Source of the DNA: Escherichia phage SME50
Sequence record: MT887289.1
Reading direction: 5' to 3' (one strand)
DNA: 64,000 bases
Shown here: piece by piece, positions 19,055-42,038 of the stretch
Layout of the letters: every line of letters begins with the position of its first letter
Position numbering within the stretch: the first letter of the stretch is position 1
Program-made: the position numbers and the translations under genes
Notes under the pieces: generated by a model
What the model was told of the DNA's origin: nothing
Database searches by the model: none
The model's input: the letters and a program-made list of their open reading frames with translations, nothing else

Positions 19055-19108
19055 AAGCCCCAGATAAAGAGCTTTACTTAATTAACCCTTAAACTAGGAG
19101 ATTCAAAA

Positions 19109-19489
19109 ATGGCTTATCGTGCACCTAAATTCATCAACAAAGACAACTTTCGCAACGCACTGGAGAAGTCACTTGATGAAAATTTTAAAGGTAACATTAT
19201 CGTTGTTCACGCATTCAATTTTAAGTATGATGTAAACGGGAATAGAATCAACCATTACACAGCAACCATGTTAGATGGTACGCTATCAAGTGAAAAAGCT
19301 GTACTGAATGCACTTGCAGGACGTGGTAAAAACCTGATAAGATGCGATAAGAGACGTTATCAGGGTGGCGCATATGGTTATGATGATGCTGTTTATCATC
19401 TTGAAAATATGGGCTATTCAGTGGAAAAAGCTGGAGTGTCTCAAATAATCGGCAGTGACGGCTATGTGACAATTTTCAAAATTAACTAA
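19109..19489 (+). CDS. small hypothetical protein (small-gene cluster)
   Basis: 126-aa ORF behind conserved leader. Confidence 0.55.
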   Translation: MAYRAPKFINKDNFRNALEKSLDENFKGNIIVVHAFNFKYDVNGNRINHYTATMLDGTLSSEKAVLNALAGRGKNLIRCDKRRYQGGAYGYDDAVYHLENMGYSVEKAGVSQIIGSDGYVTIFKIN

Positions 19490-19497
19490 TAAAGTAC

Positions 19498-19526
19498 TTT
19501 ACAGGGGGCTTATAGTTCGATAAAGT
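19498..19526 (+). promoter_or_regulatory. promoter cassette, type 1 (TTTACA - 17 - TAAAGT)
   Basis: Same conserved hairpin-containing cassette. Confidence 0.45.
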
Positions 19527-19580
19527 AAGCCCCAGATAAAGAGCTTTACTTAATTAACCCTTAAACTAGGAGATTCAAAA

Positions 19581-19871
19581 ATGGCTATTATTAAAAACGT
19601 TGTAATTCCTGCAAAAACTCGTGATGACGCTCGCATCATGGCGAAAAAGTTAGGCGGGAAAGTGGTTGACAACGGAAAACAAACTGCTGTAAGGTGGAAC
19701 GTGAAGGCGGATAAACAAATGAATTTAAAAAATTCACCAATAAACCTTTTTACATGTGTAAACACTATCGGGAAAACGAATGTATACACTAAAAAGGCAT
19801 ATATCAGACGCATCGCCATGACGTCACCTATTCGCACAATGAGAAGTCATGCAAAGCTGAAAATTAAGTAA
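19581..19871 (+). CDS. small hypothetical protein (small-gene cluster)
   Basis: 96-aa ORF behind conserved leader. Confidence 0.55.
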   Translation: MAIIKNVVIPAKTRDDARIMAKKLGGKVVDNGKQTAVRWNVKADKQMNLKNSPINLFTCVNTIGKTNVYTKKAYIRRIAMTSPIRTMRSHAKLKIK

Positions 19872-19879
19872 TAGAGTAC

Positions 19880-19908
19880 TTTACAGGGGGCTTAAAAGCT
19901 GATATCTT
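19880..19908 (+). promoter_or_regulatory. promoter cassette, type 1 (TTTACA - 17 - TATCTT)
   Basis: Same conserved cassette. Confidence 0.45.
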
Positions 19909-19961
19909 AAGCCCCAGATAAAGAGCTTTACCACTCAATCCTTAAACTAGGAGATTCAAAA

Positions 19962-20474
19962 ATGAAAACTGTAGACGCTACCTTTGAAGTTGTAAAAGAA
20001 AAATTTTCCATCATTTACGAAGCTGTCAATTGCTACGAAGCAAGCCATAATCTTGATAATTGGAAGTTTACAGATGACCATCAAGGCGGTGTGACTATTA
20101 AAAACCCCAACTGTCAGCGTAATGGATTTAAATATGCAATTCCTTTACATTACAGCCTTAAACAGCTTTCAATTGACTATGCAAAACAAGGCCGGGAAAA
20201 TCCATCGAAAGAGGCTTACATCAGCTTACAGAAAGAACTAGAAAGAGATTTAGAGGCTTCAGAATATAACATCGCCGCGAAAGTTGTAGATGCAAACGGT
20301 AGCACGGTTTTAGAGAGTTTTTATATTGGTTATGCTTTCGATTGGTGCTACAGTGACGGCGATGATTTAGATGACAGACTAAAAGAGGAAGTGAACAACG
20401 CAGACGCAGAATCTGAAGTATTAGAACGCTTGGAAGCATTAAAAGATTCAGTGATGAATATCTTTAAGAACTAA
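19962..20474 (+). CDS. small hypothetical protein (small-gene cluster)
   Basis: 170-aa ORF behind conserved leader. Confidence 0.55.
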   Translation: MKTVDATFEVVKEKFSIIYEAVNCYEASHNLDNWKFTDDHQGGVTIKNPNCQRNGFKYAIPLHYSLKQLSIDYAKQGRENPSKEAYISLQKELERDLEASEYNIAAKVVDANGSTVLESFYIGYAFDWCYSDGDDLDDRLKEEVNNADAESEVLERLEALKDSVMNIFKN

Positions 20475-20483
20475 ATAGACCTC

Positions 20484-20512
20484 TTTACACGGGGCTAACA
20501 AGCGGATATGAT
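20484..20512 (+). promoter_or_regulatory. promoter cassette, type 1 variant (TTTACA - 17 - TATGAT)
   Basis: CTCTTTACACGGGGCTAACAAGCGGATATGATAGCCCC then conserved leader. Confidence 0.45.
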
Positions 20513-20565
20513 AGCCCCAGATAAAGAGATTTATCAAATTAACCCTTAAACTAGGAGATTCAAAA

Positions 20566-20862
20566 ATGAAACTATCAAATAAAGTCCGTGAAAATCTAAG
20601 CAAGTTGCTTAATAAAATTGATTTCATTGAAACATCAAGGAATAGCCATGATGTTATGGAATGGTTACACGGAAAAATCAAAGGCCGTCGTGTAGTGATT
20701 TGCTTATGGAATAGTTGCAGGGAATATAAAAAACCTGTATTACAAGTCAATATCTATGATGATACTTTTAAAAGCCCTGTAAAGTCTAAAAGCGATTTAT
20801 TAGAATCTTATGAGATAACTGTAAATGGCAAGGTATCACGTAAAGAGGAAGCACCATGTTAA
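20566..20862 (+). CDS. small hypothetical protein (small-gene cluster)
   Basis: 98-aa ORF behind conserved leader. Confidence 0.55.
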   Translation: MKLSNKVRENLSKLLNKIDFIETSRNSHDVMEWLHGKIKGRRVVICLWNSCREYKKPVLQVNIYDDTFKSPVKSKSDLLESYEITVNGKVSRKEEAPC

Positions 20863-21188
20863 TGATGGGTATCACTGCAATCATTGCCATTATAGCACTT
20901 TACAAGGCTTATAGCGCATATAATTTGGCAAGTAAGGCAATCACGCAGCAGGTCAATAATAACCTTGTAATGAGCTTTCTGGAGCGTTTAAGCGATGAAC
21001 AAATAAAACGGTTAGAAATGAGCTTCAGATTTCAATCAAAAACTTATCAAATCAGCGACATTTTCAAAGATGATTTTCAGCTCGTCGATGATTATAACTC
21101 TCTGATAAATGCTTTAAATATCAGTGATTTAAAAGATTATCATGCTGTAATAGTTCAAGAATTGAGCAAACGAAAACAAAATTCTTGA
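20856..21188 (+). CDS. small membrane protein (small-gene cluster)
   Basis: 110-aa ORF with N-terminal TM segment; overlaps the upstream stop. Confidence 0.5.
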   Translation: MLMMGITAIIAIIALYKAYSAYNLASKAITQQVNNNLVMSFLERLSDEQIKRLEMSFRFQSKTYQISDIFKDDFQLVDDYNSLINALNISDLKDYHAVIVQELSKRKQNS

Positions 21189-21213
21189 CACTGATTTTTA
21201 GATAGATTAAATT
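21185..21213 (+). promoter_or_regulatory. promoter cassette, type 2 (TTGACA - 17 - TAAATT) with conserved hairpin leader
   Basis: TTGACACTGATTTTTAGATAGATTAAATT, then leader ATCAACGGGGAGGGATTAACCTTCCC...CCTTAAACTAGGAGATTCGAAAATG. Confidence 0.55.
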
Positions 21214-21277
21214 ACTCATCAACGGGGAGGGATTAACCTTCCCACTAAGTAAAGTCCTTAAACTAGGAGATTCGAAA

Positions 21278-21436
21278 ATGATTCAAATAGGTGATAAAGT
21301 TGTCTGGAACGATATAGACAATGATTTATGCACAAAAATTGTAATTGTCTTAGAGCTTGATTATATAATTGGTGTTGCAACTGTTGCAGATAATGATATA
21401 ATCTTTGATGTTTTAATCAGTGAGCTATCGAAATAA
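21278..21436 (+). CDS. small hypothetical protein (52 aa; below track cutoff)
   Basis: ATG directly after the conserved leader; open frame to TAA at 21434-21436. Confidence 0.4.
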   Translation: MIQIGDKVVWNDIDNDLCTKIVIVLELDYIIGVATVADNDIIFDVLISELSK

Positions 21437-21459
21437 GCCTTAAACTAGGAGATTCGAAA

Positions 21460-21732
21460 ATGTATACTACTAACAACGGTCGCACTTTGAACGTAACCCT
21501 GCGCCACTATGTGAACGGTGTAATGCACTTCGAGGATTTACAAGCCGAACAACATATCTTGGATTGGCAAGTAGCAGGACTCCAAAAAACTGCTACAGGA
21601 TACGGGAAAAAGATTCCAACTAGTTGGAAAGTATACTACGAAGGGCGTTTGCGCAGAATTTATCAAGATGTATACAGTAATAGCGCATCAAGTTACATCA
21701 TAGTAAAAGGTAAAAAGCTGCATTTAGTATAA
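21460..21732 (+). CDS. small hypothetical protein (small-gene cluster)
   Basis: 90-aa ORF preceded by leader GCCTTAAACTAGGAGATTCGAAAATG. Confidence 0.55.
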   Translation: MYTTNNGRTLNVTLRHYVNGVMHFEDLQAEQHILDWQVAGLQKTATGYGKKIPTSWKVYYEGRLRRIYQDVYSNSASSYIIVKGKKLHLV

Positions 21733-21737
21733 AGTAC

Positions 21738-21766
21738 TTTACAAGGGGCTTATAGTTCGATAAAGT
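21738..21766 (+). promoter_or_regulatory. promoter cassette, type 1 (TTTACA - 17 - TAAAGT)
   Basis: Same conserved cassette. Confidence 0.45.
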
Positions 21767-21817
21767 AAGCCCCAGATAAAGAGCTTTAACACTCAATCCT
21801 AAATTGGAGATTCTAAA

Positions 21818-22222
21818 ATGGCTATTAATAATCGTGAGTTATCAATCTTAAAAGCACGTTTGACCGTTAATCGGATTAATGTTATTACATCATCAGCACC
21901 GGATGAGACATTGCACAACATTATCGGGAAGATTCAAAGTGTTATCTTAGACGTTGAAAACGTAAAAAACTCACTGGCTGACGTTGCAGCAGGTATCACG
22001 CTAGACGGTGCGCAATATGAAATGGCTGACATGTTAGGCAAATCTAAGGTAATGAATAAAGAGTTAGACTTGAAAATGTTTAGATTTGCTGTTAAAGTGT
22101 GGCTATCTGTCGAGTATGACGCAAATTTTGCAATCGCTGACTTTTTCGCAACATGGTTGCAACGTAATTTAACAAATCATGATTTCCGTGATGTCTGTGA
22201 TGCAATTTATGCGGAACTCTAA
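21818..22222 (+). CDS. small hypothetical protein (small-gene cluster)
   Basis: 134-aa ORF. Confidence 0.55.
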   Translation: MAINNRELSILKARLTVNRINVITSSAPDETLHNIIGKIQSVILDVENVKNSLADVAAGITLDGAQYEMADMLGKSKVMNKELDLKMFRFAVKVWLSVEYDANFAIADFFATWLQRNLTNHDFRDVCDAIYAEL

Positions 22223-22235
22223 AAAAAAAAAACTG

Positions 22236-22264
22236 TTGACACTGATTTTTAGATATATTAAATT
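22236..22264 (+). promoter_or_regulatory. promoter cassette, type 2 (TTGACA - 17 - TAAATT)
   Basis: TTGACACTGATTTTTAGATATATTAAATT plus hairpin leader. Confidence 0.55.
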
Positions 22265-22329
22265 ACGCATTAACGGGGAGGGAATGAACTTCCCCACTAA
22301 GTAAAGTCCTTAAACTAGGAGATTCTAAA

Positions 22330-22533
22330 ATGGCTATTATTAACGGCTTAACCATTGAAACAACACACATCAAAGACATTAAAGTTGGTGATGTAGTCCT
22401 TTCCCACGGCGTAGAGAAAACTGTTACTGCAAAGGATATTAAAGAGGATTCTTTCATGGGTAGGACTCTCTTCGGTGATTCTTATTGCTTGGGTTATCTT
22501 GCAGTTTTAAAAGTTGTCAAAAATAACCGTTAA
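22330..22533 (+). CDS. small hypothetical protein (small-gene cluster)
   Basis: 67-aa ORF behind conserved leader. Confidence 0.5.
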   Translation: MAIINGLTIETTHIKDIKVGDVVLSHGVEKTVTAKDIKEDSFMGRTLFGDSYCLGYLAVLKVVKNNR

Positions 22534-22538
22534 AGTAC

Positions 22539-22567
22539 TTTACAAGGGGCTTATAGTTCGATAAAGT
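22539..22567 (+). promoter_or_regulatory. promoter cassette, type 1 (TTTACA - 17 - TAAAGT)
   Basis: Same conserved cassette. Confidence 0.45.
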
Positions 22568-22625
22568 AAGCCCCAGATAAAGAGCTTTACCACTCAATCA
22601 AGTCCTTAAACTAGGAGATTCAAAA

Positions 22626-23189
22626 ATGAAATGCTATCACGGCACTACTCTGAAAAACTTTGTAAACCTGCTGAATGGTGGCGACAAGCCTGAAGGAATC
22701 TGGAACTGCTCCTACATGGATGATTGTTTCTACGTTTACCCAATGAACAAGGTTATCAAAACGGAATGTCTGGAAGATGAGGAAGATTCTTATATCCGTG
22801 AACGCTGCATTCAAAGCGCCTTAGAGTCTGGACTTATTACGGCAGCTTTCCAAATGGAAACGCAGGAAGTGATTGTTATCGAAATGGATATCCCAGAGGA
22901 AGAACTTGAGGACGATTATTCTTGTGACAACATGAGCGAAATTGCCAGCTTTACCGGATACTTTGATAAGAATTGGATTATCGGTATACACTCGACGAAA
23001 TTTAGTGCGATGTATGCGCCTTTCTTTGTACCGGATACAACTAACCGTAATTTAGGATATATTGACGATGATTTGTTAAGTATGGCGAAAATTGTACAGA
23101 ATAGCGGTGATAGTTCCGTGTTTTGTGACCTACTTGATAAAATCACGGCAAACATCACAGAACGCAATTTAAAAGACTTTTTAGGTTAA
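22626..23189 (+). CDS. hypothetical acidic protein (small-gene cluster)
   Basis: 187-aa ORF behind conserved leader. Confidence 0.55.
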   Translation: MKCYHGTTLKNFVNLLNGGDKPEGIWNCSYMDDCFYVYPMNKVIKTECLEDEEDSYIRERCIQSALESGLITAAFQMETQEVIVIEMDIPEEELEDDYSCDNMSEIASFTGYFDKNWIIGIHSTKFSAMYAPFFVPDTTNRNLGYIDDDLLSMAKIVQNSGDSSVFCDLLDKITANITERNLKDFLG

Positions 23190-23252
23190 TCAGTACAAAG
23201 ACACCAACTTCCAACTTAAGGCCCGTACAGGGCCATTTAGAGGGCTTCAATC

Positions 23253-23486
23253 ATGCTTACAACCATTTACCTCATCCTTTCCATTTGTAATGGTCATTCA
23301 TGCGATTTTAAAGGGCTTGAGGAGTTTACAGGGAGTAAAGAAAATGTTATTCATACCTGTCAGATAGCAAGGCAAGACTATCCCGCCAGTGATGATATAC
23401 AATGTTACTTTAAGACAGAAGATAATGACGGCGTTTATTTTGATAGCGTAGACGGTCAATATGAAATTATCATTGAAAAAGACTAG
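23253..23486 (+). CDS. small hypothetical protein
   Basis: 77-aa ORF; preceded by hairpin GGCCCGTACAGGGCC rather than the conserved leader. Confidence 0.45.
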   Translation: MLTTIYLILSICNGHSCDFKGLEEFTGSKENVIHTCQIARQDYPASDDIQCYFKTEDNDGVYFDSVDGQYEIIIEKD

Positions 23487-23512
23487 ACAAGCCTGATAAA
23501 AGTCTGTAAATT
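23484..23512 (+). promoter_or_regulatory. promoter cassette, type 2 (TAGACA - 17 - TAAATT)
   Basis: Followed by the ATCAACGGGGAGG... hairpin leader. Confidence 0.5.
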
Positions 23513-23576
23513 GTCAATCAACGGGGAGGTAATAACCTCCCTACTAAACAAAATCCTTAAACTAGGAGATTCGAAA

Positions 23577-23918
23577 ATGGCTTATGTAACCGTAATTACC
23601 AATAAAGAAGATTCATCTTGGTCAACTCAAGTAAGTGACAAGATGTCACCTATGCAGTGCCTAAAATACTTTGAGCAATGGAACAAAGGTGAGGAAACAA
23701 GCCCCTTTCAAGTAATGCAGATTATCCATACAGACAACGAAGGGAATAAAACTGTTTTGAATAGTGAGTACTATGCAACCAGATTCGAAACGAGAAGTAA
23801 AGCAATGAAACTCTTACGTGAATCCGGTTATTCTCATATTGCCGCGCTAATCTGGGATGACCTCCTAAAAAGTCAGCGTATCAGTTATGTAAAACCTGAA
23901 AAAATATTCATCAGTTAA
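23577..23918 (+). CDS. small hypothetical protein (small-gene cluster)
   Basis: Start reassigned to the ATG (MAYVTVITNK) directly after the conserved leader; track ORF starts at 23511 inside the leader. Confidence 0.5.
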   Translation: MAYVTVITNKEDSSWSTQVSDKMSPMQCLKYFEQWNKGEETSPFQVMQIIHTDNEGNKTVLNSEYYATRFETRSKAMKLLRESGYSHIAALIWDDLLKSQRISYVKPEKIFIS

Positions 23919-24047
23919 TCAACAACTTACAAAAAACTTTTAAAAAAGTGTTGACAATGCCCCTTGACATTGGTAACTTTGTTCGAGGGGGTTTATCTAA
24001 AAGGGATTAACTTAAAAGATTCTTTATAGATAAACTTAAAAAATTGC

Positions 24048-24076
24048 TTGCAATCAGATATCAAAACAAGTAAATT
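24048..24076 (+). promoter_or_regulatory. promoter cassette, type 2 (TTGCAA - 17 - TAAATT)
   Basis: Followed by hairpin leader. Confidence 0.5.
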
Positions 24077-24138
24077 ACTAATCAACGGGAGGGATAACCT
24101 CCCCACTAAGTAAAGTCCTTAAACTAGGAGATTCAAAA

Positions 24139-24669
24139 ATGAACAAATTTCAAGCTATCAATTACATCCGCTCAAATAGTGTTATGTCAAAGCCTGTTAA
24201 AGACACCTATGAATTTCGTTGCAATGGTGTACACTTTGCAACCATCACCAAATCAGAAAACGGGGCTTATTACGTTCATCGCCGTAATGTTGCAACCGTT
24301 GTAGTCTCTCACTTTATGCAAGCTGTCGCGGAACTTCTCCCGATGTTTTTAGGGCTTTACTTAGATGAGTGTAAGCACATTCATAACCATGTTAAAAGCC
24401 TTTTAAACGGTTATAAAATGGCTTATGAGCGTTCTATCAAGTCCTTAAACAAGTTTTACAACGCACCTGAAAACACCGTATCAATGGCATACGCTGTAAA
24501 GGGTGAGGCGGTGAGTCTCTTCGAAGTGGAAGAAATCGAGCTTTATGACCATCGCCCCAATGGTTACGCTAAAACTCTCGGTGAAGGTTTAACGTTCAAT
24601 ATCAAGAACTTAGAAAAAACTTTAAAAGATATTGAAAAAGATATTGACGAGACAATCAAAAGTCTGTAA
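24139..24669 (+). CDS. hypothetical protein (small-gene cluster)
   Basis: 176-aa ORF behind conserved leader. Confidence 0.55.
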   Translation: MNKFQAINYIRSNSVMSKPVKDTYEFRCNGVHFATITKSENGAYYVHRRNVATVVVSHFMQAVAELLPMFLGLYLDECKHIHNHVKSLLNGYKMAYERSIKSLNKFYNAPENTVSMAYAVKGEAVSLFEVEEIELYDHRPNGYAKTLGEGLTFNIKNLEKTLKDIEKDIDETIKSL

Positions 24670-24672
24670 ATT
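24644..24672 (+). promoter_or_regulatory. promoter cassette, type 2 (TTGACG - 17 - TAAATT)
   Basis: Lies within the 3' end of the upstream ORF; followed by hairpin leader. Confidence 0.5.
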
Positions 24673-24735
24673 GTCAATCAACGGGGAGGGAATGACCTTC
24701 CCCACTAAGTAAAGTCCTAAACTGGAGTTATCAAG

Positions 24736-24999
24736 ATGGAAAACGTCGAACTGACCACACTTTTACAAATTGCAACCGACAAAGAGGATGTAGCATTATT
24801 CCACCGTATCGAAAGTGATTTGTTCAATGGTGAAATCATTAAAGAATCTTACGAAGTGGTCGGATTCAAAGATGGTAAATCATTTGGATTCTTTGACCTC
24901 GACAAAGGCAACGCTATTACAGAGTATGATGTTTTATCTTGTGAGATTCTGACAAAATACAACGAAAAAAGACTTGCAACATACGCCAACATGCAGTAA
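24736..24999 (+). CDS. small hypothetical protein (small-gene cluster)
   Basis: 87-aa ORF; leader variant CTAAACTGGAGTTATCAAGATG. Confidence 0.5.
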   Translation: MENVELTTLLQIATDKEDVALFHRIESDLFNGEIIKESYEVVGFKDGKSFGFFDLDKGNAITEYDVLSCEILTKYNEKRLATYANMQ

Positions 25000-25002
25000 A
25001 TT
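24974..25002 (+). promoter_or_regulatory. promoter cassette, type 2 (TTGCAA - 17 - TAAATT)
   Basis: Followed by hairpin leader. Confidence 0.5.
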
Positions 25003-25067
25003 ACTAATCAACGGGGAGGGAATGACCTTCCCCACTAAGTAAAGTCCTTAAACTAGGAGATTCTAAA

Positions 25068-25316
25068 ATGGCAACTATCCGCGCAATTGTAAATTCTTAT
25101 GGCTGCTACACTCTGGACGTTAAATTTGATATAGGTGGGACCGATGAGTGTTTCGAACTGGTGAAAACAGTCATTAAACAAGTTATCCCAGACTATAACC
25201 CTACTGATGACTTCTGGAAAGATGCAGTAAAAGAGGCATTGAACGATGAATATCATTACCATTATTGGGGTGATTTGATTGTCTCCCTGTACTACAATAA
25301 ACAAGGTTGCAACTAA
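25068..25316 (+). CDS. small hypothetical protein (last of small-gene cluster)
   Basis: 82-aa ORF behind conserved leader; chosen over the antisense ORF 25053-25325. Confidence 0.5.
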   Translation: MATIRAIVNSYGCYTLDVKFDIGGTDECFELVKTVIKQVIPDYNPTDDFWKDAVKEALNDEYHYHYWGDLIVSLYYNKQGCN

Positions 25317-25353
25317 TCGGCGCAACGGGGCAAATAGCCCCAGATACCTTTAT

Positions 25354-25377
25354 AGCCCCTTAAATGGGGCTTTTTTA
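25354..25377 (+). terminator. rho-independent terminator closing the small-gene cluster
   Basis: AGCCCC-TTAAAT-GGGGCT hairpin followed by TTTTTT. Confidence 0.6.
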
Positions 25378-25399
25378 CGTCTTATCAAATCCTATACAA

Positions 25400-26900
25400 T
25401 CCTTTTCCTTTCCTTTCCAGAGTCTTACTAGACCTTAAAAGCAATAACTCTATAGCTTACTCTATAACCTTTTATCAAATCAACTTAAATATAAGCCCAT
25501 AACCCGAAAGGGAAGGGCAACCGTTTAAACGCTCTATAAAGCTCTATAACAGCCTTATCAACCTAACTTAAGGGATTGCATTAACTCACCCTAAAAAGCC
25601 CTTTATAAAGCTTCCTAGAGGCTTAAAAGAATCTTATAAGGGTGTAAGCTTTATCATCTCGTTAGTTCCTTGTGAATATCTAGAAAGGGCTTGTTAGTGT
25701 CTTAAAAGTATGTTATAGGGGCTATAAAGTAGATTAAAAGTTACTTCAAAGTTACGTAAATGCTAGCCCCCTTAACATTTTCTTAACAATTTCTTAACAA
25801 ATCCTACATAGTTATGCTTTTAAGGTACTTGTTAGCAACTTGTTAGCCCCTTGTTAAATCTCTGTTAATACCTCGTAAAAGCCTTGTAAGAGTCTTTGGC
25901 ATAGCCTTTAAAGCCTCTGTAAAGCCCTATAAAGAGCTTTCTACATAGTTGGGGTGTAATTACTAGGAAGAGACTAAAAAGAGCTTATAAGGAGCTATAA
26001 AGGGCTTTTAAGAGGGCTATTTAAAGAATCACTAAGAGAGAAAGGGAATGATAAGAAAAGAGATAGTGACCATGTTAACAGCTTGTTAAAAAGGTTAAAC
26101 ACTTGTTAGGAACTTGTTAATTATCTTAACAAAATAACTCTTTAAAATTAACTTGTTAGCTCTTGTTAGTCATCTGTTAAGCCTCTGTAAAGACTATGTA
26201 TCAACTGTTAAGAAACTGTTAAGCTCTTGTTAGTTCTGTTAAGAATCTGTTAAGACCTCTGAAGAGATGTTAAGAGGATGTAAGAACTGTTAAGAGATTG
26301 TTAATGATATTTTAAAATTCTGCAAAGGGGATGTTACAGGGATGTTAAGGGCTACCAAGCAGATATACATCCTAGACAGATATTTTTCAGTTCCTTCAAA
26401 GACCCTAAAAAATGACTTGATAGTCCTATTTTATAAAAATTTTAAAATTCTGAATAATTACCTAGACAGTCTTCTAAAAATACAGGCATAAACAGGTTTA
26501 TAAGATACCTTGTTAGTACCGTGTTAGACCTTGTGAGATAAGGTCTGTAAAGATATTCCTGTTAAGTTTGTTAAAACAGTCTATATAGAGGCTTAGTAAT
26601 ACCTAGTGAACACCTATAGAGGGTAACATAGCTGACATAGAGATTAAGAGGTGTATAGGGGCTTCTAAGAGGGTGTAGAGAGATGGTTAAGGTGATTGTA
26701 TAGGTTGTTAAGAAGGATTGTTAGAGGGCTATTTAGAAGGGCTATACAGAGGGGCTATTAAGACCACTAGATAGATACTAAGATACTATATAGTACTATA
26801 TAACTATATATATAGAGAGTAAGCTTAAGAAGGTTGTTAAGAAGGTTAGATATTTTATTCACATATGATGGTGACCCAGAGGTTGGGACAACCGATAAAA
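25400..26900. repeat. ORF-free repeat-dense region (about 28 copies of YTGTTAR plus CTnTAAAG and GGGCTAT motif families, AT-rich tract near 26760-26815)
   Basis: No ORF of 60 aa or more on either strand over about 1.6 kb; bounded by convergent terminators. Confidence 0.7.
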
Positions 26901-26912
26901 TTTTATAAAAAT

Positions 26913-26938
26913 TAAAAAGCCCCCAATTAAGGAGGCTC
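26913..26938 (-). terminator. rho-independent terminator for the minus-strand gene block
   Basis: Minus-strand hairpin AGCCTCC-TTAATT-GGGGGCT followed by TTTTT. Confidence 0.5.
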
Positions 26939-26948
26939 TTAAGATATT

Positions 26949-27542
26949 TTAAACCAGTGTTTCCAGAACTGTCTTCAGTGATGACTTGGTTGTCTGATAA
27001 AAATGAGTAAATCCATTGTTGTTATCGAATACCTGCATCATGATATCATCTCCCTTGATTGGGTACACTCGGATATCATAGTGGAACCCGTTAAAGACAG
27101 CAGAACCATTACAGAATGAACTAAAGTCATCCACTGAGATGTACTCTTCGTGACCTGTGATTTTTATACAGACACCTTTGCTCGGTCTCTTAGGGTTAAT
27201 ATCTTCCATCACAGACATATTCTGTCCACCAAGAGATACCATAGTGACCACTTTACGGTTCTTCTGTTTAAAGTACATCTTAACTTTCTGTAAAGTATCT
27301 TCATAGAACGGATAAGACTTCTCTACAAAGATTCCTTCAAGTGGCTCTTTACCATTTCTAACTTCTCTGATATGACGTACTGAGAAGATAAGTTGCTCTA
27401 GTATGTCAAGGCTTTCTTTGGAGAGTGCTTCCCGAACATCAGCCCAGTCAAGGACTAGGTAGTTGCCTTCAACTTCTTTCAAGTTATCTTTTTCCATAGC
27501 TATCACACCATTATTGTAAAACTTGGTAATCCGGTACTGCAA
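26949..27542 (-). CDS. hypothetical protein
   Basis: 197-aa ORF, last gene of the minus-strand block. Confidence 0.5.
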   Translation of the reverse strand: MQYRITKFYNNGVIAMEKDNLKEVEGNYLVLDWADVREALSKESLDILEQLIFSVRHIREVRNGKEPLEGIFVEKSYPFYEDTLQKVKMYFKQKNRKVVTMVSLGGQNMSVMEDINPKRPSKGVCIKITGHEEYISVDDFSSFCNGSAVFNGFHYDIRVYPIKGDDIMMQVFDNNNGFTHFYQTTKSSLKTVLETLV

Positions 27543-37107: not shown

Positions 37108-37184
37108 CTCTGTTTAGCTCAGCTTGGTAGAGCGTTCCGTTTGGGGCGGTAAGGCCGGAGGTTCAAGTCCTCCAACAGAGACCA
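37108..37184 (+). tRNA. tRNA-Pro(TGG)
   Basis: Manual fold: acceptor CTCTGTT/AACAGAG, D-arm GCTC...GAGC, anticodon loop TTTGGGG, T-arm GGAGG-TTCAAGT-CCTCC, CCA encoded. Confidence 0.7.
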
Positions 37185-37191
37185 AATTAAT

Positions 37192-37269
37192 GTTCCAGTA
37201 GACAAAACGGTAAAGTCACCACTCTTTCAAAGTGGATATTTGAGGGTTCAAATCCCTTCTGGAACGCCA
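37192..37269 (+). tRNA. tRNA-Glu(TTC)
   Basis: Acceptor GTTCCAG/CTGGAAC, anticodon stem CCACT/AGTGG with loop CTTTCAA, T-loop TTCAAAT, CCA encoded. Confidence 0.7.
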
Positions 37270-37276
37270 GTTTTGA

Positions 37277-37349
37277 CAGAAGACCAATTGCAGCAAACTT
37301 AATCTTATTCATCTGACACGAAATCGGACAAAGAAGATATTTGGTCTGG
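37277..37349 (+). ncRNA. conserved inverted-repeat element A (CAGAAGACCAA ... TTGGTCTGG)
   Basis: 7-bp closing helix; conserved 5' block CAGAAGACCnnnTTGCAGCAAA; immediately follows a tRNA 3' end. Confidence 0.35.
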
Positions 37350-37360
37350 TCATTAAGAAT

Positions 37361-37437
37361 TGCGGGTATAGAGAAAGGGCGTCTCACATGTCTCATTAGC
37401 ATGGTATCGGCAGGTTCGACTCCTGCACCCGCCTCCA
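37361..37437 (+). tRNA. tRNA-Met(CAT), possibly initiator-type
   Basis: Anticodon stem CATGT/GCATG with loop CTCATTA; T-arm GCAGG-TTCGACT-CCTGC; position 1-72 unpaired (T/C); CCA encoded. Confidence 0.6.
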
Positions 37438-37443
37438 ATTTTG

Positions 37444-37503
37444 CAGAAGACCGTATTCAGCAACAAAATACTTTTTGCGGATAAAAGAAAAAACACGGTC
37501 TGG
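37444..37503 (+). ncRNA. conserved inverted-repeat element B (CAGAAGACCGT ... ACGGTCTGG)
   Basis: 7-bp closing helix around an A/T-rich loop; shares the 5' block with elements A, C, D. Confidence 0.35.
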
Positions 37504-37514
37504 CAATGTATTAA

Positions 37515-37591
37515 GGTTAGGAAGCACATAAGGTATGTGCGGTCGCCTGTTAAGCGAATGGCACAGGGTTCGAATCCCTGACTAACCGCAA
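37515..37591 (+). tRNA. tRNA-Asn(GTT)
   Basis: D-arm GCAC...GTGC, anticodon loop CTGTTAA, T-arm CAGGG-TTCGAAT-CCCTG; 3' end reads CAA not CCA. Confidence 0.6.
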
Positions 37592-37600
37592 AATTTAAAT

Positions 37601-37688
37601 GTGTCGTTATCCCGTAGATGGTAGCGGTGGGGACTGTAAATCCCTTGTCATTGAGACTCGGTAGGTTCGACTCCTACACGGCACACCA
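37601..37688 (+). tRNA. tRNA-Tyr(GTA), class II
   Basis: Acceptor GTGTCGT/ACGGCAC, anticodon stem GGGGA/TCCCT with loop CTGTAAA, long variable arm, T-arm GTAGG-TTCGACT-CCTAC, CCA encoded. Confidence 0.7.
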
Positions 37689-37710
37689 ACACTTAGCGAG
37701 ATACTTAGTT

Positions 37711-38139
37711 ATGAGAGATGAAGTATACAAATCACAACTTGGTATGAGTTTAGGAACTGCACAAAACAGACTAGTAAAAGATTTGCTATTTGATTTTATA
37801 TGTAAAACAAATCAAAATAGATGTTTTCAGTGCGGAAAGGAAATGACTAGGGATGATTTCTCTATCGAGCATAAGATTCCGTGGAGACATAGTGAAAATG
37901 CAAAAGAGCTTTTCTTTTCACTAGATAACATTTCTTATAGTCATCTTAAATGCAACATGAAAGCAGCAAGACCAGCACAGATAAGTGAAAGAAAACCTAA
38001 AACAATTAAACACGGAACTGCGTATAGCTATTACAAAGGCTGTAGATGCGATGCGTGTAGGCTGGCTAAGAATGCTGAGAGTAGAAGAAACTATAGTCCA
38101 GAAAGACGTAGGAAGAAGTATATAAGAAATGGTACATAG
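37711..38139 (+). CDS. HNH homing endonuclease inside the tRNA array
   Basis: CFQCGK...EHKIPW...N...H HNH motif; start moved to ATG 37711 because the track ORF start (37618) overlaps tRNA-Tyr. Confidence 0.65.
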   Translation: MRDEVYKSQLGMSLGTAQNRLVKDLLFDFICKTNQNRCFQCGKEMTRDDFSIEHKIPWRHSENAKELFFSLDNISYSHLKCNMKAARPAQISERKPKTIKHGTAYSYYKGCRCDACRLAKNAESRRNYSPERRRKKYIRNGT

Positions 38140-38144
38140 GTTTT

Positions 38145-38220
38145 GGGGTATTAGTTTAGACGGGTAAAATACTGGATTGTCTCTCCTGAGCCGCGAGTTC
38201 GATTCTCGCATACCTCGCCA
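38145..38220 (+). tRNA. tRNA-Asp(GTC)
   Basis: Acceptor GGGGTAT/ATACCTC, anticodon loop TTGTCTC (one stem mismatch), T-arm GCGAG-TTCGATT-CTCGC, CCA encoded. Confidence 0.55.
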
Positions 38221-38281
38221 ATTTTGAGAGGGCTATTTAGCCCCTCCCTTAAAGAGTTCTTACGAGTATTCTTTAAAGGAG

Positions 38282-38355
38282 CAGAAGACCAAATTCAGCA
38301 AGTTACTTAAAATTTCAAGCCAATTTAATTTTGAAAAATTTAAAACTTGGTCTGG
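38282..38355 (+). ncRNA. conserved inverted-repeat element C (CAGAAGACCAA ... TTGGTCTGG)
   Basis: Same family as A/B/D; A/T-rich interior. Confidence 0.35.
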
Positions 38356-38368
38356 CTCAACAAATTTA

Positions 38369-38500
38369 CAGAAGACCGTTTACAGCAAAACTTAAACAAT
38401 CTATTTCTCCGGTAAAGAAAAGGCGAAGGTTCGATTCCTTCACTCGGCAGATGTCGAGTTGGTGTAATGGTAGCACTTAAGATGATAAACAACGGTCTGG
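38369..38500 (+). ncRNA. candidate Y-RNA-like ncRNA: circularly permuted tRNA-like module closed by an 8-bp terminal helix (element D)
   Basis: Order 5'-helix, CTTAA, T-arm GAAGG-TTCGATT-CCTTC, acceptor-3' ACTCGGC, acceptor-5' GTCGAGT, D-arm GTGT-AATGGTA-GCAC, TTAAG, 3'-helix; the two acceptor halves are complementary to each other. Confidence 0.45.
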
Positions 38501-38507
38501 TAATTGT

Positions 38508-38639
38508 CTTTGTAGATAAGTTATTAAGCTTACCTGTGAGTATGCGACCACAAAGGGTGAAAGGGTAAATTCTAGATTTAAACCCAACAAGGCACATCGC
38601 TACAGACCTTAAGCAAGTCTGGGTAGCTTATCTACAAAG
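38508..38639 (+). ncRNA. structured element bounded by a perfect 13-bp inverted repeat (CTTTGTAGATAAG ... CTTATCTACAAAG)
   Basis: 13-bp perfect IR encloses about 105 nt including an internal CAGACC...GTCTGG hairpin; no ORF. Confidence 0.35.
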
Positions 38640-38649
38640 ATAATTTAAT

Positions 38650-38725
38650 GGAAGTGTAGCAGAATGGTGATGCGGCAGACTTTTAATCTGACAGGCGATG
38701 GGTTCGAATCCCTCCACTTCTACCA
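38650..38725 (+). tRNA. tRNA-Lys(TTT)
   Basis: Acceptor GGAAGTG/CACTTCT, anticodon loop CTTTTAA, T-loop TTCGAAT, CCA encoded; T-stem has only 3 clean pairs. Confidence 0.55.
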
Positions 38726-38729
38726 AAAT

Positions 38730-38806
38730 GGTTCAGTCGCAGATAAGGTAATGCAGGGGTTTCATAAGCCCTATGAATGTGGGTTCGATTCCCATCTGAA
38801 CCTCCA
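38730..38806 (+). tRNA. tRNA with CAT anticodon (elongator Met or Ile2)
   Basis: Acceptor GGTTCAG/CTGAACC, anticodon stem GGGGT/GCCCT with loop TTCATAA, T-arm GTGGG-TTCGATT-CCCAT, CCA encoded. Confidence 0.6.
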
Positions 38807-38808
38807 AT

Positions 38809-38884
38809 GCTGTGAAAGCACATATGGATGTGCATTCGGCTGATAACCGAAAGGAAGAAGGTTCGAATCCTTCTCACAGTACCA
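38809..38884 (+). tRNA. tRNA-Ile(GAT)
   Basis: D-arm GCAC...GTGC, anticodon stem TTCGG/CCGAA with loop CTGATAA, T-arm GAAGG-TTCGAAT-CCTTC, CCA encoded. Confidence 0.7.
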
Positions 38885-38899
38885 ATTTCAATAAAGTTG

Positions 38900-38928
38900 T
38901 TGACATTGAGATGTGACCACTTTATAGT
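38900..38928 (+). promoter_or_regulatory. sigma70-like promoter within the tRNA array
   Basis: TTGACA - 17 nt - TATAGT. Confidence 0.55.
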
Positions 38929-39250
38929 AACTAAAATACTTCATAATATGTATAATTCAAACACCAATACATGAGCGTTAGACGTAACACAATGTGGGGA
39001 AATTTGTTGTACATATTCTGAATAGTTTTCGTTGCGTAGCGTCTATTTTGCAAATTTAAAATAAATGCAAACGACAATGTTTTTCTGGCAGTAGCTTGAT
39101 AGGCTAAACACCAGTGAGGTCTTCCAATCCCTCATCAAAGAATTTGGCGTACTCGCCCACGGTATGATTAATAAGGTGGGCAACATTCTAAAGGGTATCC
39201 CTTATGGGGCTTGGCTTAAATGCAATGAGTACCCTTTAAAATGTTAATTA

Positions 39251-39332
39251 CGGGGCGTATCTCAGCGGTCTTCTAAACCGCCGTTAACCGAGTAAGTGGA
39301 GTATGCGGGTTCGAGTCCTGCCGCCTCGACCA
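39251..39332 (+). tRNA. atypical tRNA-like gene (good acceptor/T-arm and a TCT-containing stem-loop, but no recognisable D-arm); isotype uncertain
   Basis: Acceptor CGGGGCG/CGCCTCG, T-arm GCGGG-TTCGAGT-CCTGC, CCA encoded; internal hairpin GCGGT-CTTCTAA-ACCGC. Confidence 0.35.
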
Positions 39333-39346
39333 ATTTTGGATGAAAT

Positions 39347-39695
39347 CATGAAGACTTGTATTAGGTGCAAACTTAGCAAGGATGAAAGTGATTTCTACAT
39401 GAAAGATGGTAGGAGAACTCATTCATACTGTAAAAAGTGTGTTAATGAGCAAACCATAGAAAGACAAAGAGCACTTAAACTTTCAGCTATTGAGTACAAA
39501 GGTGGTGTTTGTCAGGATTGTGGTAAAAGGTATCATCCAGCAGTGTATGACTTCCATCATTTGAATCCTTCAGAGAAAGATTTTAACATTGCTCATAGAA
39601 GAAGTCTTAAGTTCTCTCAGGAGCTTAAGAACGAACTTGACAAATGTGTTTTGCTATGTTCAAATTGCCATAGGGTAAGACATGCAAAGTATTAG
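39347..39695 (+). CDS. HNH endonuclease (zinc-finger plus HNH) inside the tRNA array
   Basis: CIRC...CKKC zinc-finger then HHLNP...CVLLCSNCHRVRH; start moved to ATG 39347 because the track ORF start overlaps the upstream tRNA-like gene. Confidence 0.65.
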
Positions 39696-39832
39696 TTAGC
39701 AGATTGCTTAGACGACCTTATCGGGTCTCCGTGTAAGGAGGTGGTCTGTATCTCATGTTTTCCAGAACATGTAAATAATCTGAGAAGGGGCTTTACAGTG
39801 TTGCGAAAATACGGTAAGCTTCGAATTATAGT

Positions 39833-39915
39833 GTGGGACGATGTTAAGACTCTAAGGCATGAGCAACGGCCTCCAAAACCGTTTCAAAGGGGTTCAACTC
39901 CTCCGTCCCATGCCA
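39833..39915 (+). tRNA. tRNA-Trp(CCA) (D-region longer than canonical)
   Basis: Acceptor GTGGGAC/GTCCCAT, anticodon loop CTCCAAA as in bacterial tRNA-Trp, T-loop TTCAACT, CCA encoded. Confidence 0.45.
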
Positions 39916-39928
39916 AAGTCTTATTAGG

Positions 39929-40016
39929 GGTAGGTAGCGGCTAATGGCAGCCAAACAGTCTTGAAAACTGTTGCCACTGTAGAGATACGGTGAGGGTTCG
40001 ACTCCTTTACTTACCG
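39929..40016 (+). tRNA. tRNA-Ser(TGA), class II
   Basis: Acceptor GGTAGGT/ACTTACC, anticodon stem ACAGT/ACTGT with loop CTTGAAA, long variable arm, T-loop TTCGACT; CCA not fully encoded. Confidence 0.6.
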
Positions 40017-40175
40017 CCTAATAAGATTTTACACCGTCCATGCTTGCTCGCATTTTCGGTTTATCCCTCGTGTATTGTCGTACACACTGATAAAGCACCT
40101 AGTAGGTGTCACGGAGAAGAGATAATATCAAGCTCTCCAAAGGTTCTAGTCACCGGATTAAACAAGACTATGCAA

Positions 40176-40195
40176 AGACCTAAATAGGTCTTTTT
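40176..40195 (+). terminator. rho-independent terminator
   Basis: AGACCT-AAAT-AGGTCT hairpin followed by TTTTT. Confidence 0.5.
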
Positions 40196-40274
40196 AGAGG
40201 GCTTCTAAGGTTATTACAGCTTGTTGTGGAACCTTGTTGCTTAGGTTCTTAGAAGTTCTCTAAAAAGATTTAAT

Positions 40275-40352
40275 GGGAGATTGACGGTAATTGGTAAACC
40301 TACCATCCTTAGAAGTTGGTGTTTGAGGGTTCGAATCCCTTGTCTCCTACCA
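40275..40352 (+). tRNA. tRNA with anticodon TAG (Leu-type anticodon) but short variable arm; identity uncertain
   Basis: Acceptor GGGAGAT/GTCTCCT, anticodon loop CTTAGAA, T-arm GAGGG-TTCGAAT-CCCTT, A73, CCA encoded. Confidence 0.45.
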
Positions 40353-40359
40353 AATTAAT

Positions 40360-40435
40360 GCAGGTGTAGCAAAATGGTTATGCGGCTGACTCTTAATCAG
40401 TAAGACGATGGGTTCAATTCCCTCCACCTGTACCA
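40360..40435 (+). tRNA. tRNA-Lys(CTT)
   Basis: Paralog of the 38650 tRNA: acceptor GCAGGTG/CACCTGT, anticodon stem GCTGA/TCAGT with loop CTCTTAA, T-loop TTCAATT, CCA encoded. Confidence 0.55.
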
Positions 40436-40439
40436 AATT

Positions 40440-40515
40440 GGGGTCATAGTTTATATGGTTAAAATTCGAGTTTTGCAAACTTGGGAACTGAGTTCAATTC
40501 TCAGTGACTCCACCA
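40440..40515 (+). tRNA. tRNA-Ala(TGC)
   Basis: Acceptor GGGGTCA/TGACTCC, anticodon loop TTTGCAA, T-arm CTGAG-TTCAATT-CTCAG, CCA encoded. Confidence 0.65.
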
Positions 40516-40521
40516 ATTAGT

Positions 40522-40596
40522 GCATCCATAGTTTAAACGGGAAAATTACAGTCTTCCAAACTGAGGTTGAGGGTTCGATTCCCTCTGGATGCTCCA
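40522..40596 (+). tRNA. tRNA-Gly(TCC)
   Basis: Acceptor GCATCCA/TGGATGC, anticodon loop CTTCCAA, T-arm GAGGG-TTCGATT-CCCTC, CCA encoded. Confidence 0.65.
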
Positions 40597-40603
40597 AATT
40601 AAT

Positions 40604-40679
40604 GCTCCTATCGTATAATTGGCTATTACGGTTGCCTTGTAAGCAACTTATCAGGGTTCGAATCCTTGTGGGAGCACCA
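40604..40679 (+). tRNA. tRNA-Thr(TGT)
   Basis: Acceptor GCTCCTA/TGGGAGC, anticodon stem GTTGC/GCAAC with loop CTTGTAA, T-arm CAGGG-TTCGAAT-CCTTG, CCA encoded. Confidence 0.7.
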
Positions 40680-40682
40680 ATT

Positions 40683-40770
40683 CAGAGGTCAAGTGAAAGA
40701 CCGCTTTGAGTCAACTGAAGACCGTAACAAATTCCACGGAGTTGAGTTAGCGGCACAACTTCAGACCTCT
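40683..40770 (+). ncRNA. inverted-repeat element E (CAGAGGTC ... GACCTCT) containing a GAAGACC block
   Basis: 7-bp closing helix and internal hairpins; immediately follows tRNA-Thr. Confidence 0.3.
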
Positions 40771-40775
40771 TTCAT

Positions 40776-40850
40776 ACTCGCTTAGTTTATATGGTAAAAC
40801 ACCACCCTTACAAGATGAAGAAAAAGGTTCAAGTCCTTTAGTGAGTACCA
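40776..40850 (+). tRNA. tRNA-Val(TAC) (weak anticodon stem)
   Basis: Acceptor ACTCGCT/AGTGAGT, D-arm GTTT...AAAC, anticodon loop CTTACAA, T-arm AAAGG-TTCAAGT-CCTTT, CCA encoded. Confidence 0.45.
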
Positions 40851-40851
40851 T

Positions 40852-40929
40852 GTTCCAGTATCCCAATTGGCAGAGGATGCAAGCTCAAACCTTGTACTAG
40901 TGACGGTTCGAATCCGTCTTGGAACACCA
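40852..40929 (+). tRNA. tRNA with anticodon CAA (Leu-type anticodon) but short variable arm; identity uncertain
   Basis: Acceptor GTTCCAG/TTGGAAC, anticodon stem GCAAG/CTTGT with loop CTCAAAC, T-arm GACGG-TTCGAAT-CCGTC, A73, CCA encoded. Confidence 0.5.
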
Positions 40930-40934
40930 ATTTT

Positions 40935-41010
40935 GCAGGATTAGTTCAAATGGATAGAGCAACAGTCTACGAAGCTGTTAATAGGGGTTCGAATCCCTTA
41001 TCCTGCGCCA
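40935..41010 (+). tRNA. tRNA-Arg(ACG)
   Basis: Acceptor GCAGGAT/ATCCTGC, D-arm GTTC...GAGC, anticodon stem ACAGT/GCTGT with loop CTACGAA, T-loop TTCGAAT, CCA encoded. Confidence 0.7.
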
Positions 41011-41029
41011 ATTTAAAGAGGCTATTTAG

Positions 41030-41587
41030 ATGAGATATTTGAAGTATGCTTCATGGATTTTCTTAGCTTTGTTAGAACCATTAGCAGCAATCTTAGCAGT
41101 TATCTTAGCACCTTTCGTAGTTCCATTTTACAGTGAGAAGAAAGGACACTTACCTTTCGGATTTAGATGGATGGAAACTTATGACAACCCGATTGATGGT
41201 GATGAAGGTCATGTCAAACGATGGGCTAAGATTAGAAAGATTGGTAAGCTCGGTGTCTATATGCAGAGAGTCGGATGGCTCTGGAGAAACAAAGCTTATA
41301 ACTTCTCCTACCATGTGTTAGGAAGAGATGTAAAAGATGTTACTAAGTGGAAAGGTAATATCAACGTAAGTTCTGACCCTGAAGATAATCAGACAGGTTA
41401 TCTCTTAATGTGGAACAGCAATGCTTGGGGATTATTCGCTTTTGTACCATCAATTAAAATCTTTGGTAAACAATTCTACTGGAGAATTTATGTTGGATGG
41501 AAACTTAAAAGTGTTGTCCCAGAAGAAAGAGCATTCTCAAGGGAAAGAGTTATGTTGGCATTCTTTATTCATCCACTAAGAAAGTAA
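41030..41587 (+). CDS. membrane protein (N-terminal TM helix) embedded in the tRNA array
   Basis: 185-aa ORF; hydrophobic N-terminus WIFLALLEPLAAILAVILAPFVVPF; Trp-rich remainder. Confidence 0.5.
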   Translation: MRYLKYASWIFLALLEPLAAILAVILAPFVVPFYSEKKGHLPFGFRWMETYDNPIDGDEGHVKRWAKIRKIGKLGVYMQRVGWLWRNKAYNFSYHVLGRDVKDVTKWKGNINVSSDPEDNQTGYLLMWNSNAWGLFAFVPSIKIFGKQFYWRIYVGWKLKSVVPEERAFSRERVMLAFFIHPLRK

Positions 41588-41595
41588 AGATTTAA

Positions 41596-41671
41596 AGGGG
41601 ATTAGTTTACAAGGTTAAAACCTCGGTCTTTGAAATCGAAGAAGTTGGTTCAATTCCAACACCCCCCGCCA
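41596..41671 (+). tRNA. tRNA-Gln(TTG)
   Basis: Anticodon stem TCGGT/ATCGA with loop CTTTGAA, T-arm GTTGG-TTCAATT-CCAAC, CCA encoded; acceptor has two mismatches. Confidence 0.5.
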
Positions 41672-41673
41672 AT

Positions 41674-41752: not shown

Positions 41753-41757
41753 AATTT

Positions 41758-41833: not shown

Positions 41834-41864
41834 CTTCTAAGGATTCTTACGAGAGTCCTTAAAT

Positions 41865-41940: not shown

Positions 41941-41945
41941 ATTTA

Positions 41946-42022: not shown

Positions 42023-42038
42023 ATTTCAAAGGTGCTTA

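Follow-up and report, generated by a model that had tools for sequence, protein, structure and literature searches.

A probable T7-type concatemer junction with 11-bp-phased repeat arrays in the Felix O1-like phage SME50

The genome sequence of Escherichia phage SME50 (MT887289.1), analyzed here over a stretch of 64,000 nucleotides that is called the window, contains a gene-free interval of 1533 bp at positions 25380–26912. No open reading frame (ORF) of 60 aa or more is present on either strand of the interval, and the largest one lying fully inside it has 49 aa (26342–26491). Rho-independent terminators were found on both flanks, and terminators are annotated at both equivalent places in phage Moogle. 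The original prediction, made from the sequence alone, had described the interval as devoid of such ORFs and enclosed by convergent terminators, and had proposed it as an origin, a packaging site or a genome terminus; the description of ORFs and terminators is borne out. The window stems from the linear genome, assembled in permuted order, of a Felix O1-like myovirus (Felixounavirus). The interval is probably the chromosome-end region of this phage, seen as it is arranged in the replicative concatemer, namely a T7-type concatemer junction. Since the direct terminal repeat (DTR) lies inside the interval, the latter splits into unique DNA of the right end, the DTR, and unique DNA of the left end:

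25354–25377, + strand: rho-independent terminator, stem AGCCCC/GGGGCT (25354–25371) followed by a T run; closes the small-gene block and forms the left limit
25380–25765: Segment A, unique non-coding DNA just inside the right physical end, with CTnTAAAG, CTATAAAG and CTTAAAAG words and one TGTTAR
25766–26356: DTR, 591 bp here, placed by homology to mapped relatives
26357–26912: Segment C, unique non-coding DNA just inside the left-end DTR copy, with seven TGTTAR, GGGCTAT words and two AT-rich tracts
26913–26940, − strand: rho-independent terminator, found at 26940–26915; closes the − strand gene block and forms the right limit

A genome terminus in the interval, one of the three proposals, is strongly supported by the DTRs of close relatives, which map to 25766–26356 and 25774–26358. 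Direct terminal repeats were identified by PhageTerm in Ro111lw (613 bp; PMC6454146) and in I14.1 (PMC11737134). The records of these two phages carry exact end repeats, of 613 bp and 581 bp respectively, and both repeats map to 25766–26356. A terminal repeat of 581 bp is also given for Pr103Blw per PhageTerm. In UAB_Phi87, a 608-bp DTR was determined by Bal31 digestion and run-off sequencing of virion DNA (PMC4837284). The GenBank record of UAB_Phi87 is not opened at the physical ends, and therefore the sequence in supplementary figure S1 of that publication was needed. The published DTR starts with AACATTTTCTTAACAA and ends with GGGCTACCAA / GATGTTAAGGGCTACCAA, which corresponds to 25774–26358 of the window. 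The homologous interval in UAB_Phi87 is 614 bp; without its first 8 nt and with 2 nt more at the right end, it matches the published 608 bp exactly. Short terminal repeats were inferred for Felix O1 as well (PMC3185647).

Other records agree with these positions. The records of H12, ECP2307, SeKF_63 and HP1 open at 25766, with a second match elsewhere in each record, and that of EcSzw_1 opens at 26355/26356. A feature named 'DTR' in UAB_69 (618 bp) maps to 25764–26358, and a repeat_region of vB_CbrM_HP1 (570 bp) maps to 25766–26356. The left boundary is uncertain by about −2/+8 nt and the right one by +2 nt. When the relatives' repeats were compared with the window by BLAST, they matched a single place, so that the window contains one collapsed copy of the DTR. 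From the homology, presence of the DTR at both virion ends of this phage is inferred. The virion DNA would start at about 25766–25774 and, after one full circuit, end at about 26356–26358; with such start and end points the repeat would stand at both ends as a short, exact and non-permuted DTR of the T7 type.

Two alternative types of ends were rejected. A headful (pac) site would give permuted and imprecise ends, while the relatives have exact and fixed end repeats; in UAB_Phi87, Bal31 degraded two discrete terminal restriction fragments (PMC4837284). A cos site is argued against by the literature on the same relative, in which heat treatment left the restriction pattern unchanged (PMC4837284). 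Also rejected was the 127-bp repeat_region at both record ends of PC79-13 (OR687644.2) as a DTR. It lies inside the true DTR, and it is probably an assembly overlap, because 127 bp is a common assembler k-mer size. A separate point concerns the record of vB_EcoM_I14.1 (PP892526.1), the taxonomy line of which reads Tequintavirus (Demerecviridae). As the ends and the flanking genes of the phage share 92% identity with this Felixounavirus window, the record appears to be mislabelled.

The interval is dense in short repeated words, whose conservation was followed in an alignment of 14 phages from three genera, Felixounavirus, Mooglevirus and Suspvirus. The arrays and the boundaries of the DTR are:

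25764–25779, − strand: left boundary word, reading ATGTTAAGGGGGCTA, an inverted version of the right boundary word
25771–25800, − strand: three inverted TGTTAAG (CTTAACA) at 11-bp spacing just inside the left end; Tandem Repeats Finder (TRF) period 11 with 94% matches; in 14 of 14 phages
25827–25869, + strand: four YTGTTAR at exactly 11-bp spacing
26073–26138: four TGTTAR, ending in an invariant 26-bp block (26113–26138) that contains the palindrome TTGTTAA-ttatc-TTAACAA
26154–26305, + strand: main array, 14 TGTTAR-type copies (12 TGTTAR, 2 TGTAAR) at 9–11 or 20-bp spacing
26332–26369, + strand: right boundary, GATGTTACAGGGATGTTAAGGGCTACC followed by AAGCAGATATACA; an invariant 27-bp run (26343–26369) spans the cut site

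The + strand of the interval has 28 TGTTAR copies and the − strand has 5, with a density of 18.3 per kb as compared with 0.98 per kb elsewhere in the window. When the region was shuffled 2000 times with dinucleotides preserved, the + strand count averaged 1.76 (sd 1.33) and never exceeded 7. With a slightly relaxed motif, TGT[TA]A[AGC], neighboring copies are exactly 11 bp apart in 14 of 34 cases, and the other distances are mostly 9, 10, 20, 22 or 33 bp; TRF likewise reports period-11 arrays in the interval. Being 11 bp apart, the TGTTAR copies lie on one face of the helix. The majority of them fall inside the DTR (20 of the 28 on the + strand and all 5 on the − strand), including two direct copies at its right end, 26332–26349. 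Two further word families are concentrated here. GGGCTAT is found five times in the interval and four times in the remaining 62 kb, and CTnTAAAG-type words are 14- to 19-fold enriched on the + strand of 25380–26356. The original prediction had counted about 28 copies of YTGTTAR with a tandem stretch at 26150–26310 and had named the CTnTAAAG and GGGCTAT families. The count agrees with the 28 copies of TGTTAR on the + strand, the stretch corresponds to the densest array, and both families are present.

Both boundaries of the DTR are nearly invariant among the 14 phages of three genera. With a slash at the boundary, the left one reads GCTA/GCCCCCTTAACAT and the right one TGTTAAGGGCTACC/AAGCAGATATACA. 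The 9-mer TGTTAAGGG occurs at 25769 (−), at 26343 (+) and at one unrelated site in 64 kb, where 0.48 occurrences are expected by chance, and the two boundaries therefore share one word in inverted orientation. The extremes of the DTR are complementary: CCCTTAACAT at 25769–25778 pairs with ATGTTAAGGG at 26342–26351. In folding of the single-stranded DTR, the boundary words pair as a panhandle on both strands (z = −2.2 and −2.9), and the next 20–40 nt at the left end of the DTR also pair with the internal arrays at 26193–26232 or 26278–26315. Because the extreme ends are complementary, a displaced single strand could form such a panhandle, as the folding model suggests.

The conservation of the arrays follows the motif. 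TGTTAR positions are 0.94 conserved against 0.865 for the rest of the region (P = 2e-9), and within arrays the motif positions are better kept than the spacers, 0.92 against 0.66 (25827–25869) and 0.95 against 0.85. In the main array, 9 of 14 copies are found in all 14 phages and four of the other five in at least 11. The predicted length of the DTR among the 14 phages takes the values 569/570, 580/581, 591 and 613/614 bp. One or two 11-bp units of the array at 25827–25869 are absent from some relatives, and all five indel events of at least 3 bp inside the DTR are of 11 or 22 bp, by which the helical phase is preserved. The conservation is not confined to the DTR. Across genera, the non-coding segments are 72–82% identical, whereas the flanking coding sequences (CDSs) kept by the relatives are 59–72% identical. 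Segment A is 72–92% identical across genera as compared with 61–71% for the adjacent CDS, and Segment C is 74–97% identical to relatives, at least equal to the neighboring CDS.

Insertions were also observed in the end region of some relatives. A partly palindromic 22-bp insert, AATTGGTATTGTTACCAATCCC, is located inside the DTR of Ro111lw, UAB_Phi87 and SUSP2 near window position 26126–26153, and JH2, Moogle and Seyj1-1 have a 24-bp insert, GAGGTAGATTCTACCGAATCAACT, immediately beyond the right boundary (near 26375). The patchy distribution of these inserts across genera suggests recombination within the end region.

Outside the three genera, the Erwinia phage phiEa21-4 (Kolesnikvirus) aligns over the right boundary alone, with about 70% identity. 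Its equivalent non-coding block of 1.2 kb contains 18 TGTTAR copies at 11, 20 or 22-bp spacing and has AAGCAGATATACA after the last TGTTAAG array, as well as a sequence resembling the left boundary, TAGCCACTTTTACATTTCGTTAACAA; words of another family, CTTCTAA, are found on its opposite side. Judged by these sequence features, the same architecture of the end region is found in phiEa21-4, with identity at or below about 70%.

Two AT-rich tracts are situated beyond the right boundary, in Segment C:

26420–26460: AT-rich tract, about 65 bp past the right boundary of the DTR, the second least stable duplex of the 64-kb window; invariant core 26426–26444, overlapping a weak sigma-70-like match
26775–26819: alternating AT tract CTATATAGTACTATATAACTATATATATAGAGAG, the least stable duplex of the window (rank 1 at 40, 60 and 100 bp); alternating part 26797–26819, invariant run 26786–26803

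The alternating tract that had been predicted is the one at 26797–26819. The enzyme expected to act in trans and cut at the DTR boundaries is encoded elsewhere in the window:

43377–44993, + strand: large terminase subunit, TerL (PHROG 979, E = 1e-233)

In the mechanism we favor, the terminase, made up of TerL and a recognition partner, would recognize the junction in the concatemer and cut at both boundaries, each of which carries TGTTAAGGG(GG)CTA in inverted orientation relative to the other. Synthesis with strand displacement, the scheme put forward for T7, would then duplicate the repeat. The 11-bp-phased TGTTAR copies would be cooperative sites for a recognition protein, marking the junction and setting its geometry. 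Judging from their sequence and placement, cooperative sites for a packaging recognition component are the most likely role of the arrays, although this role is inferred because no binding protein could be identified. That the motif is concentrated in the DTR and is part of both cut-site words ties it to the formation of ends. The packaging site of the original prediction would follow from the terminus, since the terminase must cut at both boundaries. TerL proteins of Felix O1-like phages are reported to group with those of DTR phages (PMC4837284).

Several points weigh against the concatemer junction with a packaging role. The ends of this phage are placed from homologues at 77–94% identity, and the cut positions vary by 2–10 nt among methods and records (left 25764, 25766 or 25774; right 26356 or 26358). 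The record of Seyj1-1 is opened at 25785/25786; as this opening is 20 nt inside the boundary and has no duplication, it was treated as imprecise and not as a different end. In phiEa21-4 the left boundary resembles the inverted word but the right one does not clearly do so, and for that reason the boundary symmetry is reported for three genera only. No small terminase or DNA-binding candidate is named by PHROG and Pfam for the flanking genes or by Pfam for the ORF upstream of TerL. The analogy with the end arrays of T7 does not establish a role in packaging. Finally, phased repeats adjoining easily melted AT tracts would also fit an origin of replication.

An origin, with the TGTTAR copies serving a phage initiator as iterons and the tracts at 26420–26460 and 26775–26819 as unwinding elements, is nevertheless unlikely. 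In that case the DTR would merely overlap the origin, which could coexist with a role in packaging. The sites are directly repeated and helically phased (28 + strand copies, modal spacing 11 bp), the two least stable duplex stretches of the window lie within 70–460 bp of the arrays, and the entire 1.5 kb is strongly conserved, beyond the cut sites. The promoters annotated as phiOL and phiOR in T7, which are origin-associated, adjoin the T7 end arrays. These observations speak for the repeat array and the AT-rich unwinding tracts of the origin originally predicted, but its other components are missing: no recognizable initiator gene adjoins the region by PHROG and Pfam, and only one DnaA box (26855) is present, with no enrichment or cluster. 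The concentration of the motif inside the DTR and its place within both cut-site words link it with the making of ends. Cumulative GC skew, which had been suggested as a check, turns at about 25–27 kb and about 35 kb; as these turning points follow the switches of gene strand, the skew is explained by the change in gene orientation and is uninformative on an origin. The searchable literature holds no replication mapping for any Felixounavirus, and nothing was found in it on a replication origin in this genus or on these arrays; the accessible part of the PhageMaP paper on Bas63 (Felixounavirus) makes no statement on the intergenic region. A combination of packaging and replication is also conceivable. 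The TGTTAR copies, whose phase is kept across Ounavirinae, might be a platform for a phage DNA-binding protein that coats or wraps the DTR as a nucleoprotein 'telomere'. Such a structure may mark the junction for the terminase and join the two inverted TGTTAAGGG cut sites, and at the neighboring tracts, which melt easily, it may also prime replication or duplication by strand displacement. We regard this as quite unlikely; if true, the packaging site and the origin would be one element, unlike the schemes of T7, lambda and headful (pac) phages.

Alternatively, a protein of the phage or the host could bind the arrays and cap the incoming DNA ends, or pause or pace the ejection of the genome. 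Being inside the DTR, the arrays are on both virion ends, the flanking genes on both sides point toward the ends, and in single-stranded DTR CCCTTAACAT can pair with ATGTTAAGGG. The terminal repeat of T5 contains a repeat-rich injection-stop region, and the leading end of T7 offers a comparison for paced entry. Protection of ends or control of entry in the present phage, which relies entirely on such analogy, is very doubtful: two-step DNA transfer is not reported, and to our knowledge not known, for Felix O1-like phages, and the motif in the invariant cut-site words is left unexplained. It is extremely improbable that the interval is expressed, as small proteins or a non-coding RNA, with the repeats as a mere by-product. 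Short ORFs are indeed annotated in relatives (Phi87_32 to Phi87_34, UAB69_gp027, gp028, JH2_127 and phiEa21-4 gp32), and a weak sigma-70-like site (TTTATA-17-AATAAT) is located at 26430–26458. The 49-aa ORF has internal stops in 7 of 14 relatives, and its variable sites are even over the codon positions (19/17/21). ORFs of 35 aa, 26 aa (+ strand) and 31 aa are broken in several relatives. The 26-aa ORF on the − strand (26290–26370) is open in 13 of 14, but it consists of near-invariant DNA spanning the right boundary. With most short ORFs broken in relatives or showing no codon-position bias, the small-ORF hypothesis was rejected. No Rfam family matches 25000–27300 at E up to 1, apart from a sub-threshold Phe-leader match that lies on a terminator. 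The terminators bound the interval on both sides, and transcriptional quiet, which had also been proposed, is plausible. A concatemer junction, where TGTTAR would mark the DNA for the terminase, remains our preferred explanation.

In annotated relatives, the homologous block is empty, contains only a 'repeat_region', or is assigned short hypothetical ORFs. ORFs are drawn inside the arrays of phiEa21-4 (NC_011811.1, 2798–3019), UAB_Phi87 (1720–2507) and JH2 (2729–2863). As the homologous frames are interrupted in other phages, phiEa21-4 gp32, Phi87_32 to Phi87_34 and JH2_127 seem to be false gene predictions.

The region is matched by 256 phage records, nearly all of Felixounavirus, Mooglevirus or Suspvirus, and at least 80% of it is covered in 206 of them, mostly with 80–95% identity. 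The hosts of the matching Felix O1-like phages are Escherichia, Salmonella, Shigella and Citrobacter. One 'Staphylococcus'-named record is found among the matches to this region of enterobacterial phages; it is probably mislabelled or contaminated. A block of + strand genes in the window ends at 25316, a − strand block extends from 26949 to about 34455, and + strand genes follow. The genes flanking the interval thus both point toward it, and no flanking gene reads outward from there. They fall into PHROGs of unknown function, and Pfam gives no match for the genes on either side of the interval or for the ORF upstream of TerL. On the + strand, 37108–42947 contains 25 clustered tRNA genes, a feature typical of Felix O1-like phages.

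Another repeat is located to the left of the interval. An intergenic cassette of about 48 nt is present in 11 copies in 19065–25071, starting at 19065, 19537, 19918, 20522, 21234, 21416, 22286, 22582, 23533, 24095 and 25024. Each copy ends with CCTTAAACTAGGAGATTCAAAAATG, which provides a shared leader, ribosome-binding site and start codon upstream of small + strand genes, and a GC-rich stem-loop precedes most copies. The cassette words GGGCTTAAAAG and ATAAAGAGCTTT reappear in the left part of the non-coding region. Direct repeats of 57 bp and 39 bp were noted in Felix O1 (PMC3185647), and the cassettes probably correspond to them.

The DTR of Felixounavirus is already known: its existence and size are published, as is the sequence of that of UAB_Phi87, and a few GenBank annotations exist. 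The repeat anatomy of the DTR appears to be undescribed before, since no description was found in the literature of the conserved 1.5-kb non-coding block, the 11-bp-phased TGTTAR arrays, the indels in 11-bp steps, or the inverted boundary word. These new details would not surprise a specialist, but they offer a testable handle on the recognition of the junction. Identification of the end region fixes the true start and end of the genome for annotation. In most of the roughly 250 related GenBank records the opening point is arbitrary, and the 1.5-kb block is unannotated or filled with spurious short ORFs. The exact ends and the required cis-acting sequences are also useful when Felix O1-like therapeutic phages are engineered, rebooted in vitro or synthesized in cell-free systems. 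The 11-bp phase, the 11-bp indel steps and the inverted boundary word make Felix O1-like phages a testable system for the recognition of concatemer junctions by short-DTR terminases.

Among known systems, the closest is the DTR of UAB_Phi87, an orthologous element with 88.7% identity over 25700–26420. The DTRs of UAB_Phi87, UAB_69 and vB_CbrM_HP1 share with the present one the boundary sequences and the two flanking gene families. The DTR is 585–591 bp here as compared with 608–618 bp in UAB_Phi87 and UAB_69, because a 22-bp insert is missing here. The publication on UAB_Phi87 gives the sequence only, without the phased arrays, the boundary symmetry or the conserved block of 1.5 kb.

T7 resembles this phage in having a short and exact DTR in a non-coding concatemer junction, and in a short word that recurs many times with the same orientation and at fairly even distances, both within the repeat and next to it. 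The terminal repeat of T7 is flanked on both sides by CCTAAAG arrays: in its 160-bp repeat, CCTAAAG is found at 17, 41 and 60, followed by an array at 175–332 with copies mostly 13 bp apart. The CTnTAAAG words of Segment A resemble CCTAAAG. Nonetheless, the two phages belong to unrelated virus families and share no sequence homology. The arrays are mainly outside the repeat in T7 and inside it here, with a period of 13 bp in T7 and of 11 bp here. Outward-reading promoters are present at the left end of T7, whereas terminators of inward-pointing genes are on both flanks here.

The lambda origin, plasmid iteron origins and R1 parC, the last being a centromere with 11-bp iterons, have tandem sites at one per helical turn. 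Iteron origins and R1 parC share with the interval such tandem sites adjoining easily melted AT-rich DNA. They differ in that the interval has no adjacent gene for an initiator or partition protein and no cluster of DnaA boxes. The sites here are of 6–8 bp instead of 17–22 bp, number about 33, and coincide with mapped chromosome ends. T5, a virulent enterobacterial phage as well, may offer by analogy another case in which a repeat-dense non-coding tract is tied to a terminal repeat. The terminal repeat of T5 is about 10 kb and encodes the pre-early genes, whereas that of the Felix O1-like phages is about 0.6 kb and contains no genes.

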